NCBI GenBank assembly: GCA_032124675.1
Contig: JAQBDA010000095.1
Coordinates: 594 to 64,593, forward strand
From: Chloroflexota bacterium
GTDB lineage: Bacteria; Chloroflexota; Anaerolineae; Anaerolineales; UBA4823
Length of the DNA: 64,000 bases
Direction of reading: 5' to 3'
Shown one piece after another: positions 19,636 through 57,899 of the stretch; the first letter of the stretch is position 1, and every line of letters begins with the position of its first letter. A program made the translations under genes and the position numbers. The notes below the pieces were generated by a model. It was not told the DNA's origin. It made no database searches and worked only from the letters and a program-made list of their open reading frames with translations.

Positions 19636-20490
19636 TCAGTTATCCTGGAATAAATCTTGCTCGCGCACCCGGCCCTCAACCGGAGGGTAAGCGCGCATGA
19701 AGAACTCGTTGTCACCCAGCAGGCGCTGCACCCAGCGCAGCGGGCTGCGCCGCCGTCCAGTTCCATCGAGCTGGCTGGCATGGCAGCTAGTGGCGTCCTC
19801 TTTGACCTGCACTACCGAGTGGACGTTGATCTTGGCATGGATGGGGAAATCGCCATCCTGCACCAGGTCGGCCAGGTTGATATCCTGGTTGCGCCCGTAG
19901 CGGCGCGGGTCTTTGCCCATCAGCGACAACAGCCATAATGCAATGCGCATATAGCGCTTGGGGATGACGTAATAGTACAGCCTCCCAGGTTGGTAAGGCG
20001 GCAGGTCACCGTTCAGCGCCGGGTCACCCGCCATATGAAAAGCCTGAACGGTGGCTTTATGCATGGCGATGTGGTCGGGGTGTTTGTAGCCGCCGATCGG
20101 GTCGAAGGTCAGCACGACCTGCGGGCGCAGCGCGCGGATGTGGTGGACAACTTTCTCCGTCACCTCGTCCAGCGGCGCGGCTGCCAGTGCCTGCGGGTGT
20201 TCGTTATCTGCGCTGCCGGGCATGCCCGAATCGCGGTAGTTCAGGAAATGCACGCCTGCCAGCCCCAGCTTCTCGGCCGCGCAGCGCAGCTCATCCTCGC
20301 GGCGCTCGGCGATCGAGTCGAAGCCGCGCAGGTATTGAGGGTCTACGGTGCCCGCTTCGCCGCGCGTGGCGCATACGAGGTGCACCGCCACACCCTGCCG
20401 GGCGTACAATGCCAGCGTACCGCCCATCCCGAATGATTCGTCATCCGGGTGGGCGAGCACGGCTAAGATCGTTCTATCATTATCTTCCAT
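19636..20490 (-). CDS. PIG-L/LmbE family deacetylase
   Basis: AHPDDESFGMGG and HPDH motifs. Confidence 0.85.
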   Translation of the reverse strand: MEDNDRTILAVLAHPDDESFGMGGTLALYARQGVAVHLVCATRGEAGTVDPQYLRGFDSIAERREDELRCAAEKLGLAGVHFLNYRDSGMPGSADNEHPQALAAAPLDEVTEKVVHHIRALRPQVVLTFDPIGGYKHPDHIAMHKATVQAFHMAGDPALNGDLPPYQPGRLYYYVIPKRYMRIALWLLSLMGKDPRRYGRNQDINLADLVQDGDFPIHAKINVHSVVQVKEDATSCHASQLDGTGRRRSPLRWVQRLLGDNEFFMRAYPPVEGRVREQDLFQDN

Positions 20491-20575: not shown

Positions 20576-21730
20576 TCAATAGATCGGCATGCTGGGGTCG
20601 ACTTCCCGCGCCCAGGCGTTGATGCCGCCTTTCAGGTTCTTCATCTTGCGGAAGCCGGCGCTAGCCAGGAGCTCCAGGGCGCGCGCCGAGCGCGTGCCCG
20701 CCTTGCAGAACAGCACGATGTCTTCGGCGCTATCCAGCTCGGACATACGCGCTGCCAGCTGTCCCAGGGGGATCAGCGTGGCGCCGTCCAGGTGGGAGAT
20801 ATCCAGCTCGTGTGGTTCGCGCACATCGATCAGGTGCAGGTGGTTGCCCTCTTTCATCCGGTCGGCCAGCTCGCTGGCGGTGATATCCCAATCGCCGCCC
20901 ACCGCGCCCTCTTCGTGGTCGTGCGAGGGCACCCCGCAGAAGGCTTCATAATCGATCAGCTCGGTGACCTCCGGGTTCTCCCCGCACACCTTACAGTTGG
21001 GGTTCTTGCGCAGCCGGACGAAGTCGAAGGACATGTCCAGGGCGTTGTACAGCATTAGCCTGCCGATCAGCGGCTCGCCGATGCCCAGGATCAGCTTGAG
21101 CGCTTCGGTAGCCTGCAAGGTGCCGATCGTTCCGGGCAGCACGCCCAACACGCCGCCCTCCGCGCAGGAAGGCACCAGACCGGGCGGCGGCGGCTCCGGG
21201 AACAGGCAGCGGTAGCACGGCCCTACCTGGGCGTGGAACACGCTCACCTGACCTTCGAAGCGGAAGATCGAGCCGTAGACGTTGGGCTTGCCGGTCAGCA
21301 CGCACAGGTCATTGGTCAGGTAGCGGGTGGGGAAGTTATCCGTGCCGTCGATGATGAGGTCGTAAGGCTCGGCGATGCGCATGGCGTTTTCCGAGGTGAA
21401 CGCCTCGTTATACACGTCCACCTGGATATCCGGGTTGATATCCAGCATGCGCTGGCGGGCCGACTCGACCTTCAGCACGTCCAGGGAGGCCATGCCGTGG
21501 ATCACCTGACGCTGCAGGTTGGAGTAATCCACCACGTCGTAGTCCACCAGGCCGATGCGCCCGACGCCCGCAGCCGCCAGATACAGCGCGACCGGTGAGC
21601 CCAGCCCGCCGGTGCCGATCACCAGCACCGAGGCGGCCAGCAGCTTGCGCTGCCCCTCGAGGCCTACCTCGGGGATCAGCAGGTGGCGCGAATAGCGCAG
21701 GATCTCTTCATGAGTAAGTGTTGGTAACAT
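20576..21730 (-). CDS. moeZ: adenylyltransferase/sulfurtransferase MoeZ (ThiF/MoeB domain plus rhodanese)
   Basis: GTGGLGSP nucleotide loop, CYRC zinc motif, and a C-terminal rhodanese domain with CKAGTRS. Confidence 0.9.
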   Translation of the reverse strand: MLPTLTHEEILRYSRHLLIPEVGLEGQRKLLAASVLVIGTGGLGSPVALYLAAAGVGRIGLVDYDVVDYSNLQRQVIHGMASLDVLKVESARQRMLDINPDIQVDVYNEAFTSENAMRIAEPYDLIIDGTDNFPTRYLTNDLCVLTGKPNVYGSIFRFEGQVSVFHAQVGPCYRCLFPEPPPPGLVPSCAEGGVLGVLPGTIGTLQATEALKLILGIGEPLIGRLMLYNALDMSFDFVRLRKNPNCKVCGENPEVTELIDYEAFCGVPSHDHEEGAVGGDWDITASELADRMKEGNHLHLIDVREPHELDISHLDGATLIPLGQLAARMSELDSAEDIVLFCKAGTRSARALELLASAGFRKMKNLKGGINAWAREVDPSMPIY

Positions 21731-21845: not shown

Positions 21846-22118
21846 TCATCCTCCCGCAATACTGGGGATCAGCATCAGCCGGTCGCCTTCGTTGAGCGGG
21901 GTGTCCATACCCTGCAGGTCCCGGACGTTATCTTCGTTCAGGAACAGGTTGACGAATGGGCGCAGCTGCCCCTCGCCGTTGAACAGATGCGGGCGCAGGG
22001 CCGGGTGCTGGGCGACCAGCTCGTCCATCACTTCGTGCACCGTGCTGCCCTGCAGGTCGATCTCGGACTGTCCGTCGGTGTAGGTGCGCAGGGGGGTGGG
22101 GATTCTTAAACTTGGCAT
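21846..22118 (-). CDS. cysO: MoaD/ThiS-family sulfur carrier, CysO-like
   Basis: 90 aa ending in ..IAGG. Located beside mec, cysM and moeZ. Confidence 0.85.
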   Translation of the reverse strand: MPSLRIPTPLRTYTDGQSEIDLQGSTVHEVMDELVAQHPALRPHLFNGEGQLRPFVNLFLNEDNVRDLQGMDTPLNEGDRLMLIPSIAGG

Positions 22119-22141: not shown

Positions 22142-22432
22142 TCAGCAGCCTTCTCTCTCGACGACCGTCTCACAGGTCGAGGCGGACGTGATCTCAACGG
22201 GCCCGGCCTGGGCGAAAGGCTGCATGAAGTTATCGATCTTCGCTTTTTCATCCGCTTCCAGGATGAGCACGAAGGTGTGCTGTCCATCTAATACTGCATC
22301 GCCGACGATCTGCACGCCAAACTTACGGGCGTTCAGCGGGCTGATATGAGTGAGCAGCATATTGCCTGCCGCCGGGTCTTTTGCCGGGCAGGTCTCAGCA
22401 TCGTGATAGTGGCGTACAAAGTAGAGCGACAT
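22142..22432 (-). CDS. hypothetical small protein embedded in the cysteine cluster
   Basis: 96 aa. GGAGG RBS 7 nt upstream. Cys at positions 15, 87 and 96 (C-terminal). No family recognised. Confidence 0.6.
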   Translation of the reverse strand: MSLYFVRHYHDAETCPAKDPAAGNMLLTHISPLNARKFGVQIVGDAVLDGQHTFVLILEADEKAKIDNFMQPFAQAGPVEITSASTCETVVEREGC

Positions 22433-22571: not shown

Positions 22572-23015
22572 TCAGCGACTGACAGTGACTGGTTCTTCGA
22601 TGAAGGCCTGCCGGTCTTCGCTCAGCAGCCAGGAGCGGCTGCCGGTTGCCTGACCGGACTGTACGCTGGTGATCAGGTAGGAGAACCAGGGCATCGCCCA
22701 CTCCCGGTCGAACTCTGAGGGGCGGTTGGGGTGGTCGGGATGGGAGTGGAACACACCCAGCACATCCAGCCCCCGGCGGGCAGCCTCCTGCTCGCCGAGC
22801 ATATAATCCTGCGGGGTGAGCAGGTAACGGTTGTGGCGGGCGCTGTCCTCGCGGGCGTTCGACAGGGGCAAGATGGCCTCCACCTGCTTGTGCTGCCCGT
22901 CCAGCCTGCCGAGCAGCAGGCCGGCGCCTTCCTCCGGGTAGGCTGCCTCGCCGTGACGGTCGATCTGCTGCATGATGTCGGATGCGATCTGCAAACTCAT
23001 TCTTACCTCCACCAT
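22572..23015 (-). CDS. mec: JAMM/MPN+ metalloprotease, Mec-like (CysO-cysteine peptidase)
   Basis: JAMM motif HSHPDHPNRPSEFD and an upstream E (YPEEGAG). Confidence 0.9.
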   Translation of the reverse strand: MVEVRMSLQIASDIMQQIDRHGEAAYPEEGAGLLLGRLDGQHKQVEAILPLSNAREDSARHNRYLLTPQDYMLGEQEAARRGLDVLGVFHSHPDHPNRPSEFDREWAMPWFSYLITSVQSGQATGSRSWLLSEDRQAFIEEPVTVSR

Positions 23016-23021
23016 CCTCGC

Positions 23022-24002
23022 TCAGTCCTCTTCCGCGGGCTCCCACAAGCCCTTATCGCTCAGGTATTTATAGCCCGCATCGGGGAACACGGTAACAACC
23101 ACGCCCTGGTCAAGCTCCTCGGCGACTTTCAATGCTGCTGCGGCCGCTGCCCCGGACGAGATGCCGGTGAACAGTCCTTCCTCGCGTGCCAATCGACGCA
23201 CCATGTCGTGGGCCTCTTCGGTGGAGATCTCCAGGGTGCGGTCGGGCAGGCTGGGGTCGAAAATGCCCGGCTGGATGGCAGTGGGCATGTGCTTCAATCC
23301 CTCCAGCCCGTGCAGGGGGCTATCCGGCTGCACAGCGATAAGCTGTATATCGGGGTTGAACTGCTGCAGGTAGCGGCTGACGCCGGTCAGCGTGCCGCTG
23401 GTGCCCAGCCCGGCGACGATATGCGTGACCTGCCCGGCGGTCTGCTGGAAGATCTCCGGACCGGTGGTCAGATAGTGCGCCTGCCAATTAGCCGGGTTGT
23501 CGTACTGGTTGGCGTAGAAATACAGGTCGGGTTCCTCGGCTGCCATCTGGCGGGCGACGCGGATGGCGCCATCCGACCCTTCCAGCGGGTCGGTCAGCAC
23601 CAGCTCCGCGCCCAGGGCGCGCAGGATGGCGATGCGCTCCGGGCTGGCGTTGGCGGGCAGCACCAGCGTTACAGGCACGTCCATCGCCGCCCCGAAGGTG
23701 GTGTAGGCGATGCCCATATTGCCCGAAGTCGAGTCGAGCAGGCGCTTGCCAGGCACCAGGTCGCAGTTCGCCAGGGCGGTGCGCAGGATGTTGAACGCCG
23801 GGCGGTCCTTGATCGATCCGCCGGGGTTGAACCATTCCGCTTTGGCATATACCTGCACCGAGGATGGCAGGTCAGCCGTGATGCGCCGCAGGACCAGCAG
23901 CGGGGTGTTGCCCACAGTGAACTCGACGCCGCACGGCGGCGGGGGGGCAACCACCAGCGATTGGGCCAGCCTTTCCTGGGTTTTTACGATTAGATCGCTC
24001 AT
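23022..24002 (-). CDS. cysM: PLP-dependent cysteine synthase, CysM-like
   Basis: GGSIKDRPA, SSGNMGIA and GTSGT motifs. Start set at ATG 24002 (GGAG 8 nt upstream). Alternative ATG at 24020. Confidence 0.9.
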   Translation of the reverse strand: MSDLIVKTQERLAQSLVVAPPPPCGVEFTVGNTPLLVLRRITADLPSSVQVYAKAEWFNPGGSIKDRPAFNILRTALANCDLVPGKRLLDSTSGNMGIAYTTFGAAMDVPVTLVLPANASPERIAILRALGAELVLTDPLEGSDGAIRVARQMAAEEPDLYFYANQYDNPANWQAHYLTTGPEIFQQTAGQVTHIVAGLGTSGTLTGVSRYLQQFNPDIQLIAVQPDSPLHGLEGLKHMPTAIQPGIFDPSLPDRTLEISTEEAHDMVRRLAREEGLFTGISSGAAAAAALKVAEELDQGVVVTVFPDAGYKYLSDKGLWEPAEED

Positions 24003-24043
24003 CGGATCAGCTCCAACCATTCAGCTTGCACTTGCATATTTCG

Positions 24044-24301
24044 ATAAATAAAAGACCGGCAGACACCAAAAAAGGTGGTGGGCTATCAGCCACGCATTAT
24101 CAATTCCGCATGCGGGGTCCCAACCACCTCTCGCCAGTCTGCCGGTCTCATGAAACAGGGGGGATCTGTTTCGGCGTGTGTGCTATGACGAGGCGGTGGT
24201 TACAGGCCCCGCCTCAGACACATGCAAGTGTACATGAATGTTTGCTCCGTGCAGTTCGCCGCTCGGAAATTTATCCTTCCGAAGTATTCGGCGATTTGCA
24301 T
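24044..24301 (-). promoter_or_regulatory. cysM leader: Cys-codon leader ORF, alternative helices and two nested intrinsic terminators (candidate attenuator)
   Basis: Minus strand. ORF 24301-24200 encodes ..MYTCMCLRRGL. Helix GAGGCGG/CCGCCTC. AACCACC is complementary to GGTGGTT. Terminator GGTGGTTGGG/CCCACCACC plus U6. Outer 11-bp helix plus UUUUAUUUAU. Confidence 0.6.
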
Positions 24302-24330
24302 TAAAGATATTTATGAGTAAATTCGTAATA

Positions 24331-24358
24331 ATTATAAGCGCGATGCGAAGCTTGTCAA
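24331..24358 (-). promoter_or_regulatory. near-consensus promoter of the cysM leader
   Basis: TTGACA (24358-24353), 16-nt spacer, TATAAT (24336-24331). Confidence 0.55.
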
Positions 24359-24487
24359 GAGGCAAAAAAAACTATCCATTTGGCTAGAGGATAACTCTCC
24401 TTTCGAATGAAGCGATTAATGGCGGAATGGATTATGATGGTAGCGTACAACCCACTTATCCGAATCGTTTCACCAAAGGAAACTCCC

Positions 24488-25237
24488 ATGAAAACCAAAA
24501 CCATAATGATTTCCCTTTTTGTCCTGTCGATGTTGTCCATGAGCTGCAACTTCTTGACAAATATCGGTGTCAATGCGATTACTCCATCCGATGTGACTAT
24601 CAGCGAGAACCGGGATGTCAGCGGCTTTGATGCGATCGATTTCACCACTTTCGGAAAGATGAATATCATGCAGGGCGATGTCGAGTCGCTGAACATATCC
24701 GGACCCGACAATCTGGTACCGGAAATCAGAACCACAGTGCGCAATGGGACGCTCATCATCGAGACCGATAAAAATCTCACCATTAGATCTCTAAACAAAG
24801 AGCTCGAATTGGTATTCACACTCGTCGTCAAAGATCTCACCTCGCTGGCAATCAGCGGGCTGGGTGATGTCCAGGTAGAGACCCTTTCAACCCCCAGCAT
24901 GGATATAAATATGAGTGGTGCGGGGAGGATTGTGCAGGACCAGATCACCACGGATAATCTGAATGTCAATCTCAGTGGATTGGGTGGGATTGAAATTTCT
25001 GGTCAGACTGCTCGGGCTGCGATAGACATTTCCGGCGCTGGCAGTGTAAATGCTCCGGACTTGCAGATCCAGACTGCCAAGGTTAACGTCTCGGGTTTGG
25101 GCGGCGCTACCCTGTGGGTGACGGATCAGTTAACCGGTGAGATCAGCGGCGCCGGCAGCGTTTCCTATTATGGCAATCCCCAGACCAGCACGACTTCTTC
25201 TGGATTAGGGGATTTCAAATCCCTGGGAAATAAATAG
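24488..25237 (+). CDS. DUF2807 (GIN/head-domain, adhesin-like beta-helix) lipoprotein
   Basis: Lipobox LSMSC. Repeated SG(L/A)G..V motifs. Start at ATG 24488 after AAGGAAA. Visibly lower G+C than its neighbours. Confidence 0.7.
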   Translation: MKTKTIMISLFVLSMLSMSCNFLTNIGVNAITPSDVTISENRDVSGFDAIDFTTFGKMNIMQGDVESLNISGPDNLVPEIRTTVRNGTLIIETDKNLTIRSLNKELELVFTLVVKDLTSLAISGLGDVQVETLSTPSMDINMSGAGRIVQDQITTDNLNVNLSGLGGIEISGQTARAAIDISGAGSVNAPDLQIQTAKVNVSGLGGATLWVTDQLTGEISGAGSVSYYGNPQTSTTSSGLGDFKSLGNK

Positions 25238-56418: not shown

Positions 56419-56588
<170 letters not shown>

Positions 56589-56657: not shown

Positions 56658-57899
56658 ATGAGCAATACGTTTATGACTTCGCCTAGCCTGCTGTTCACGT
56701 CCGAATCGGTAACGGAAGGGCATCCCGATAAGATCTGCGATCAGATCAGTGATGCTGTGCTGGACGCCTGCCTGGAGCAGGACCCCGGTTCCCGTGTGGC
56801 TTGTGAAACAGCCACCAAGACCGGGTTTGTCATGCTGATGGGTGAGATCACCACGCGTGCCAGCATCAATTATGATGAGCTGGCACGACGTGTGATTAAC
56901 GAGATCGGCTATGACAGCAGCGAGAAAGGTATGGATGGCAGCAGCTGCGGTATCCTGATGGCGATTGCCCGCCAGTCTAGCGATATTGCCCTGGGAGTCG
57001 ATAAGGCGCTGGAAGCCAAGACCGGCGAGATGAGCGACGCTGAGGTCGAGTCGATCGGAGCAGGCGACCAGGGGATGATGTTCGGTTATGCCTGCAATGA
57101 AACACCCAGCCTGATGCCTATGCCGATCTACCTGGCGCATAAACTGGCTTTGCGGCTGACCGAGGTTCGCAAGGATGGTACGCTGCCCTGGCTGCGCCCG
57201 GATGGCAAGACGCAGGTCACGGTGGAGTACAGCTACGGGCGTCCGGTGCGGGTTGCTACGGTGCTGGTCAGCACCCAGCACGCGCCGGAGATCAGCCAGG
57301 AAGAGATCCGCGCCGCGCTGATCGAGCATGTCATCGACCCGATCGTGCCGGCTGAATTGCTCAACGGCAGCCCGAAGATCTATGTCAACCCGACCGGGCG
57401 TTTCGTGATCGGCGGACCGCAGGGAGATTCGGGGCTGACCGGGCGCAAAATTATCGTTGACACGTATGGGGGCATGGGCCGCCATGGTGGCGGCTGTTTC
57501 AGTGGCAAAGACCCAACGAAAGTGGACCGCTCGGCAGCTTATGCAGCCCGCTGGGCAGCCAAGAACGTGGTCGCTGCTGGGCTGGCGGAGCGCTGCGAGA
57601 TCCAGGTAGCGTACGCTATCGGTGTCGCGCACCCGTTGAGCGTCAACGTGGAGACTTTTGGTACCGGCAGCATCCCGGATGAGCAGATCGCCGCGCTGGT
57701 GCTTGAGCATTTCGACCTGCGCCCGGGGGCCATCATCCGTGACCTGGACCTGCGCCGCCCGATCTACCGTCAGGTGGCAGCCTACGGGCATTTCGGTCGC
57801 GACGACCTGGACCTGCCCTGGGAGCGCACCGACAAAGCCGCGCTGCTGCGAGAGGCTGCCAGTGTGAACGAGACAGCAGCCGTCTCCCTGGAAGGTTAA
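56658..57899 (+). CDS. metK: S-adenosylmethionine synthase
   Basis: [26 protein letters not shown], and [16 protein letters not shown]. Confidence 0.97.

Follow-up and report, generated by a model that had tools for sequence, protein, structure and literature searches.

In the stretch of 64,000 nucleotides (nt) of contig JAQBDA010000095.1 analysed here in full (the window; Chloroflexota, Anaerolineae, Anaerolineales), the cysM-mec-cysO-moeZ cluster on the minus strand is preceded by a leader that we take, with a probability of about 80%, to be a ribosome-mediated transcription attenuator sensing charged tRNA-Cys. The leader belongs to a family with a wide distribution in Anaerolineae, where it precedes cysteine and sulfur genes. 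It brings together the features by which attenuators are recognized, namely, a conserved short open reading frame (ORF), Cys codons placed before genes for cysteine, a terminator in front of cysM and an antiterminator sharing a strand with that terminator.

All coordinates are window positions, and all leader elements are read on the minus strand. The stretch from the promoter to cysM spans 356 nt and contains every element that had been listed in a sequence-only reading of the window; together with the elements recognized in the present analysis, these are as follows:

24331–24358, minus strand: sigma-70-type promoter TTGACA-N16-TATAAT, matching the consensus at 12 of 12 positions; the promoter block aligns with those of the related loci L001, L013 and L060
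24250–24297, minus strand: window-specific hairpin of the 5' untranslated region (−23.3 kcal/mol, z = −3.4), outside the conserved element
24245–24248, minus strand: Shine-Dalgarno motif GGAG of the leader ORF, 9 nt upstream of ATG 24235
24200–24235, minus strand: leader ORF of 11 codons, MYTCMCLRRGL-stop, from ATG 24235 to TAA 24202–24200
24226–24224 and 24220–24218, minus strand: Cys codons of the leader ORF, TGC and TGT, respectively
24215–24209, minus strand: region 1, GAGGCGG
24196–24190 and 24201–24195, minus strand: region 2, CCGCCTC and AACCACC, respectively
24190–24215, minus strand: local hairpin 1:2, GAGGCGG/CCGCCTC, with the stop codon in its loop; part of the full-length minimum free energy (MFE) fold
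24186–24212, minus strand: antiterminator 5' strand, consisting of GCGGGG (24212–24207), CCU, AACCACC (24201–24195) and CUCGUCA (24192–24186)
24112–24136, minus strand: antiterminator 3' strand, consisting of UGGCGAG, GGUGGUU (region 3), GGG and CCCCGC
24128–24122, minus strand: region 3, GGTGGTT
24068–24128, minus strand: inner intrinsic terminator, stem GGUGGUUGGG/CCCACCACC followed by U6
24117–24090, minus strand: internal hairpin of the terminator, CCCCGCAU/AUGCGUGG
24137–24149, minus strand: 5' arm of the outer helix P0, GAGACCGGCAGAC
24044–24064, minus strand: 3' arm of P0, GUCUGCCGGUCUU (24064–24052), followed by a second U-rich tract that extends to 24044

The architecture is compact, with several segments serving in more than one helix. 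The 5' strand of the antiterminator overlaps codons 8–11 of the leader ORF, its stop codon and region 2, and the long antiterminator helix joins the 3' end of the ORF, GCGGGG..TAACCACC, to GGTGGTT..CCCCGC. Region 3, in its longer form (24128–24119), doubles as the 5' arm of the inner terminator, in which GGTGGTTGGG (24128–24119) pairs with CCCACCACC (24082–24074), immediately followed by U6 (24073–24068). The inner terminator is enclosed by P0, a helix of 11–13 base pairs (bp) with a core formed by GACCGGCAGAC (24147–24137) and GTCTGCCGGTC (24064–54) and an extension to 13 bp (24149–24137/24064–24052). The near-consensus promoter, the GGAG motif ahead of ATG 24235 (at 24248–24245), regions 1–3, the terminator with its U6 and the enclosing helix were thus all found where the sequence-only reading had placed them, P0 being longer than the 11 bp originally described. 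A simple terminator scanner reported no site at the leader; the scanner was restricted to loops of 3–8 nt and missed both terminators because their loops exceed this limit.

Conservation across related genomes identifies the reading frame that matters. A scan for the CysM protein, with one genome retained per species, yielded 80 loci, 79 of which belong to Chloroflexota, mostly metagenome-assembled genomes of Anaerolineales; the CysM proteins of the loci are 62–87% identical to that of the window. The leader core (24227–24191) was recovered 5' of cysM by BLAST or nhmmer in most of the 80 loci, and a short ORF (sORF) ending in C-x-C-x-x-R-G-x-stop was found by pattern in 74 of them and, in variant form, by eye in L022, L045, L050 and L073 (some of the other counts were also taken by eye from alignments). 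The leader element is therefore present in 78 of the 79 evaluable loci, L032 having been left out for its overly short upstream sequence; it is missing from L080, the sole locus from Armatimonadota. L003, labelled Anaerolinea thermophila, is among the carriers. The sORF core pattern, which occurs in 71 of the 80 cysM loci, always lies on the gene strand, 5' of cysM or cysK, and the window contains one occurrence, against 0.15 expected by chance.

Across the loci, the ORF takes the form M-x(2–9)-C-x-C-x-x-R-G-x-stop. An in-frame ATG, GTG or TTG is located 2–9 codons (exceptionally up to 11) 5' of the first Cys codon (Cys1) in 77 of the 77 loci that could be read (all but L045), and GGAG precedes this start by 6–10 nt in the majority of window-like loci (class A). 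The distance from Cys1 to the stop codon is 27 nt everywhere except in L079 (24 nt), with TAA, TAG or TGA, but never a sense codon, at that one position (TGA in L041, L051, L073 and L079), and the codon between the two Cys codons is variable at all three positions. Cys1 is mostly TGC, with TGT in L015, L046, L051 and L073, and every sequence examined has TGT as its second Cys codon (Cys2). Since TGT is decoded by G:U wobble, it may be the more starvation-sensitive codon at this position, or else an RNA constraint may hold it in place. All loci have two Cys codons, apart from L017, which has one, and some loci with three.

Conservation applies to the frame of 11 codons that starts at ATG 24235. 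The sequence-only reading had quoted both this peptide and a 33-residue one starting at ATG 24301, and both frames are indeed present as given, but the longer one was discarded as a candidate for the functional frame: upstream, it crosses the hairpin 24297–24250, which is absent from L001, and no other locus keeps the long form. The hairpin itself (about 50 nt) lies between the transcription start region and the Shine-Dalgarno motif of the leader ORF, occurs as a single copy in the window and is not present in the closest relative, L001.

The RNA helices were tested on a 61-sequence alignment (A1), unless otherwise noted. A second sample came from a metagenome scan with a pattern consisting of the sORF core and CCCCGC only, which gave at least 120 loci; when 100 of these were searched with a covariance model derived from A1, 93 matched over the whole model (two of them without the first 12 positions), so that the architecture is constant. 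RNAalifold, applied to MAFFT alignments, recovered only P0 and part of hairpin 1:2. Because the window-like class and the other classes differ by 3 columns in the MAFFT register of the terminator 5' arm, stem 3:4 was tested on class-specific alignments (A3 and A4). P0 is the best supported of the predicted helices, with 12 of 12 pairs changed on both sides and 88.9% of cells paired in A1, and the same 12 of 12 pairs compensatory (90.1% of cells paired) in the metagenome set. Terminator stem 3:4 is 88.6% paired in one class (A3), with compensatory changes in six of eight pairs, and 91.1% paired in the other (A4), with such changes in four of eight. The internal hairpin of the terminator, CCCCGC/GCGUGG, has loops that vary in length between loci.

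The antiterminator had originally been described as a 2:3 pairing. Covariation upholds this pairing in A1, where pair 41–150 is CG in 26, UA in 10 and UG in three sequences, and pair 45–149 is AU in 32, GC in eight and GU in nine, with 68% pairing overall compared with 23–49% for slid controls. The helix is, however, longer than claimed, owing to an additional pairing of GCGGGG (codons 9–10, 24212–24207) with CCCCGC (24117–24112) inside the terminator, which is 98.6% paired and whose rare substitutions are nearly all compensated (GCAGGG/CCCTGC in L015; GCGAGA/TCTCGC in L022; GCGGGA/TCCCGC in L029b, L061 and L079; GCGGAG/CTCCGC in L045, L050 and L073). The GCGGGG:CCCCGC pairing and 2:3 together form one long antiterminator, the core of which is 70–90% paired in the metagenome set, compared with 42–49% for slid controls. 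Column 150 of A1, within region 3, covaries with its partner in region 2 as well as with its partner in region 4, which is the signature expected of mutually exclusive helices. Hairpin 1:2 fared less well: it is present in the full-length MFE fold and its inner 5 bp are 82–100% paired in A1, but covariation is modest and it is the least well supported of the helices. A U tract follows at least one of the two stems in every locus; the inner tract is missing in L013, L041 and L076, and the outer one in L014b and L029b (L014 551–710; L029 557–722), a distribution which suggests that the two tracts act as alternative or tandem termination points.

Folding of the alternative states, which had been put forward as a check on the attenuation model, gave the corresponding structures. 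The whole leader has an MFE of −128.6 kcal/mol (z = −7.15 relative to shuffled sequence) and folds into 1:2, the terminator and P0. A nascent RNA extending from Cys1 to just beyond CCCCGC, without region 4, instead adopts the long antiterminator (−50.2 kcal/mol), with GCGGGG:CCCCGC, CCU:GGG, AACCACC:GGUGGUU and CUCGUCA:UGGCGAG as its helical parts; with masking of the 5' end as far as 24209, to mimic a ribosome whose A site contains Cys2, the remainder of the antiterminator still forms (−37.2 kcal/mol). The same antiterminator helix is the MFE fold in L012 (z = −4.1) and L004 (z = −6.4). The downstream part without region 2 folds into the terminator and P0 (−59.7 kcal/mol, z = −5.0).

From these sequence data, we infer the following course of regulation. 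Transcription would start at the promoter 24358–24331, and a ribosome would translate the 11-codon ORF (24235–24200). The antiterminator, whose 5' strand runs from the last four codons through the stop codon into the next ~14 nt and whose partner is region 3 plus CCCCGC (24136–24112), would be the default fold of the nascent RNA. With Cys-tRNA plentiful, the ribosome would reach the stop codon and cover the 5' strand of the antiterminator while the polymerase makes regions 3 and 4, so that 3:4 would pair, the composite hairpin consisting of the 3:4 stem, the internal hairpin and P0 would form, and transcription would end at either U tract before cysM (OFF). With Cys-tRNA scarce, the ribosome would stall when Cys1 or Cys2 enters the A site, its leading edge then lying just before or inside GCGGGG; the antiterminator would then form, both terminators would be blocked and cysM-mec-cysO-moeZ would be transcribed (ON). 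By standard ribosome geometry, Cys1 in the A site would put the leading edge 1–2 nt before GCGGGG, and the stop codon in the A site would have the ribosome covering approximately 24212–24190, that is, almost all of the antiterminator 5' strand. Once the ribosome has been released, hairpin 1:2 may recapture the strand set free, or it may serve as a pause site; P0 probably zips up from the 3:4 stem, providing a second terminator under the control of the same antiterminator. The trp-type logic of the sequence-only reading is thus supported by a conserved ORF with conserved Cys codons and stop position (78 of 79 loci), by compensatory changes in 2:3, 3:4 and the outer helix, and by the lack of an Rfam match (see below); the proposed alignment of cysM upstream regions likewise showed conserved Cys codons and compensatory changes in 2:3 and 3:4, those in 1:2 being modest.

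Several considerations weigh against attenuation of this type. Translation of the leader ORF and termination at the U tracts are both deductions from sequence, as is the role assigned to P0. The Cys codons are only two in number and non-adjacent, with a single one in L017; classical attenuators usually have more regulatory codons. An obvious Shine-Dalgarno motif before the leader ORF is missing in many class B loci. The predicted antiterminator is very stable, and in L012 it wins over the terminator even with region 4 present, such that efficient termination would require a tight coupling between ribosome and polymerase that is hypothetical for Chloroflexota. Finally, the invariance of GCGGGG and of the Cys2 codon TGT at the nucleotide level reflects a strong RNA-level constraint, for which an RNA-only mechanism could in principle account.

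Among the alternatives, the one that fares best, although we consider it unlikely, retains the sensing of Cys-tRNA by the ORF and, on the model of the mycobacterial polycysteine sORFs, places the output in the initiation of cysM translation, in Rho-dependent polarity or in mRNA stability, the U tracts then representing an AU-rich initiation context. The position of the second U-rich tract in class B loci, just ~15–20 nt upstream of the cysM start codon, the loss of one or the other U tract in the five loci named above and the translational mode of the sole experimentally tested Cys system (bioRxiv 10.1101/834739) would all fit such an output. However, no pairing of the leader with the cysM Shine-Dalgarno sequence was found in the window fold, two G+C-rich stems, each with an adjoining U tract, are conserved, with at least one in every locus, and the three-way covariation of region 3 with regions 2 and 4 is the signature of a terminator/antiterminator pair.

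A translation-independent RNA switch, in which a cysteine- or sulfur-related ligand or a protein flips the leader between antiterminator and terminator and the short ORF is incidental, appears distinctly improbable. Such a switch could explain the nucleotide-level invariance of GCGGGG, CCCCGC and the second TGT, the presence within the terminator of a conserved internal hairpin and junction, both dispensable for plain termination, and the lack of a clear Shine-Dalgarno motif in class B loci. By contrast, it would leave without a reason the in-frame start codon in every locus checked, the use of three different stop codons at one position where TGG never occurs, the free variation of the codon between the fixed Cys codons and the synonymous TGC/TGT change at Cys1 in four loci; moreover, the conserved nucleotides in the 3' half of the ORF are fully explained by antiterminator pairing, and Rfam offers no match. 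A different role for the same conserved parts, namely, that the internal domain of the terminator (the CGA-CCCCGC junction and the internal hairpin) and P0 constitute a second sensing or checkpoint module, for example, for a sulfur metabolite or a protein, is speculative and has little probability in our estimation; if true, Cys-tRNA, via the ribosome, and a ligand, via the RNA, would be integrated in one composite double terminator. A functionless chance co-occurrence of a small ORF and hairpins, which has in its favour just the general frequency of both in G+C-rich intergenic DNA, is refuted by conservation in 78 of the 79 genome loci that could be evaluated, at a CysM identity of just 62–87%, and in 93 of 100 metagenome loci, by the extensive compensatory change and by the fold z-score of −7.15.

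The leader does not correspond to any RNA family in Rfam. In an Rfam 15 scan of 23500–25000 at E ≤ 10, there was no T-box (RF00230), no SAM class and no credible match of any other kind; matches to potC and to miRNA families were discarded as noise (E > 2). At the gathering threshold, nothing was found on the leader, either in the window or in 13 related loci, and the sole riboswitch match in the window is a SAM-I element at 56419–56588, away from the leader. The T-box and SAM explanations, which the sequence-only reading had named for exclusion, are accordingly not those of this leader.

The principle of a cysteine-sensing leader ORF is already known, and the novelty implied in the sequence-only reading, to which no well-characterized cysteine leader-peptide attenuator for this CysO-type pathway was known, was overstated, given the reports from Actinobacteria and Rhodobacterales (PMC1262725; bioRxiv 10.1101/834739; PMC8632094). 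Cys-rich leader peptides have been predicted 5' of actinobacterial cys operons, where no terminators were found (Seliverstov et al., 2005; PMC1262725). In mycobacteria, leaderless polycysteine sORFs have been shown experimentally to unmask a Shine-Dalgarno sequence without transcription termination, with cysK1-cysE and cysA2, a rhodanese gene, among the members of the resulting ‘Cys ribulon’ (Canestrari et al., 2020; bioRxiv 10.1101/834739). In Rhodobacterales, uORFC-8-2, an upstream ORF with Cys codons followed by a terminator, has been predicted 5' of cysS (Brewer et al., 2021; PMC8632094). Full-text literature searches retrieved no description of such a leader in Chloroflexota. As far as the literature and Rfam were searched, what is new is the family, the lineage, the C-x-C layout, the antiterminator strand encoded within the ORF itself and the nested double terminator.

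The closest parallel in overall logic is provided by the enterobacterial attenuators (trpL, hisL, leuL, thrL, pheL and ilvL), with which the leader shares a stop codon beside or inside region 2, a local 1:2 hairpin, an antiterminator 2:3 that excludes a terminator 3:4 followed by a U tract, and the fact that the sensed amino acid is made by the products of the regulated genes. It differs from them in that it would sense cysteine, through only two regulatory codons arranged as C-x-C, and in that the terminator is composite, with an inner stem that carries an internal hairpin and is nested in an outer helix; the latter covaries strongly and has a second U tract. Unlike in the enterobacterial attenuators, the 5' strand of the antiterminator is made of the last four codons of the ORF, and RNA pairing hence determines the C-terminus of the peptide (R-R-G-x). 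The leader, which comes from Chloroflexota, is unrelated to them in sequence. Cys-specific T-box leaders of Firmicutes (e.g. that of cysE-cysS) also sense tRNA-Cys charging and switch between terminator and antiterminator before cysteine genes; T-boxes, which likewise occur in Chloroflexota, bind the tRNA directly and need no ORF.

With the mycobacterial polycysteine sORFs, the leader would have in common that stalling at the Cys codons of an upstream sORF controls cysteine and sulfur genes, and the gene sets also correspond, with cysK-cysE and a rhodanese sulfurtransferase operon (the parallel of cysA2) present in both and several independent copies per genome. Yet the mycobacterial sORFs are leaderless, whereas here 95 nt (~40 nt in L001) separate the end of the −10 box from the ATG, with the start of transcription predicted from the promoter, and a Shine-Dalgarno motif is present; they end in consecutive Cys codons, as opposed to C-x-C followed by four more codons; and they unmask the Shine-Dalgarno sequence of the next gene with no termination, whereas here the sORF pairs with region 3/CCCCGC and terminators are conserved. 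The rhodobacterial uORFC-8-2, itself a prediction, resembles the leader in being a predicted ribosome-mediated attenuator, in having its two Cys codons conserved (UGC in most cases, UGU in some) and in its terminator with a U tract (PMC8632094). It is set apart by its published description: its Cys codons are in tandem at about positions 14–15, inside the first stem, instead of one codon apart and 5' of the stems, and it is a two-stem element located in alpha-proteobacteria 5' of the tRNA synthetase gene cysS, rather than of cysM, cysK or rhodanese genes. There is no sequence similarity between the two.

If the proposed mechanism holds, the leader would serve the genes of cysteine biosynthesis as a dedicated leader-peptide attenuator of the classical terminator/antiterminator type; to our knowledge, cysteine control otherwise proceeds via protein regulators, T-boxes and mycobacterial translational sORF attenuation. 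It would also extend ribosome-mediated attenuation to Chloroflexota (Anaerolineae), which are abundant in sludge, sediment and groundwater and have been little studied genetically. By this design, the antiterminator strand dictates the C-terminus of the peptide, and one antiterminator appears to govern two nested terminators.

Beyond cysM, the leader precedes further gene sets. A second copy lies 5' of cysK-cysE in L014, L029 and L037, where both genes score above the NCBIfam cut-offs. Of the first 80 loci in the metagenome set, at least 52 have a next gene that encodes, 100–260 nt downstream, the G-x-T-P-L motif seen in cysK and cysM. At nine loci (L088, L097, L115, L125, L128, L130, L133, L154 and L158), the leader stands 5' of a gene for a tandem-rhodanese sulfurtransferase, a two-domain protein of 279–281 amino acids (with a longer ORF call in L133), followed by a gene for SufE. 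At two others (L157, 540–2603; L119, 7567–9600), it is followed by genes for DUF4395 and a thioredoxin-like protein and then by cysK, an arrangement that links DUF4395 to cysteine and sulfur metabolism. One pattern match, in L127 on a stretch with an alpha/beta-hydrolase ORF, looks like a chance match and was set aside. All gene sets identified behind the leader are cysteine- or sulfur-related, and its occurrence 5' of the cysK-cysE, rhodanese-sufE and DUF4395-thioredoxin-cysK operons indicates that it marks a cysteine/sulfur regulon. The element could accordingly serve as a marker of this compact regulon and guide the annotation of unknown genes located behind it, and the family is a candidate for submission to Rfam. 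The resemblance of the gene set to the mycobacterial ‘Cys ribulon’, reached via a different mechanism, would represent a case of convergence. In the window, the covariance model gave one match, the leader itself, and neither this model nor the pattern search detected a second copy there.

The genes that follow the leader in the window are arranged as follows:

23022–24002, minus strand: cysM, first gene after the leader, with a PALP domain and the Shine-Dalgarno motif GGAG at 24014–24011
22572–23015, minus strand: mec (Prok-JAB)
22142–22432, minus strand: ORF with a DUF3303 domain, between mec and cysO
21846–22118, minus strand: cysO (ThiS family)
20576–21730, minus strand: moeZ (ThiF and rhodanese)

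The best NCBIfam model for cysM is cysM itself (346 bits), under the strict cut-off of that model. A gene for a PIG-L/MshB-like deacetylase (19636–20490, minus strand) follows moeZ on the same strand and may be a member of the operon; deacetylases of this family are used in low-molecular-weight thiol biosynthesis. On the other side of the leader, a divergent gene (24407–25237, plus strand) encodes a DUF2807 protein (putative adhesin head GIN domain), and the two genes have in common an intergenic region of ~130 nt, within which the leader promoter lies. The SAM-I (S-box) riboswitch mentioned above (plus strand, 79.6 bits) is located directly 5' of metK (56658–57899), the product of which has all three S-AdoMet synthetase domains.

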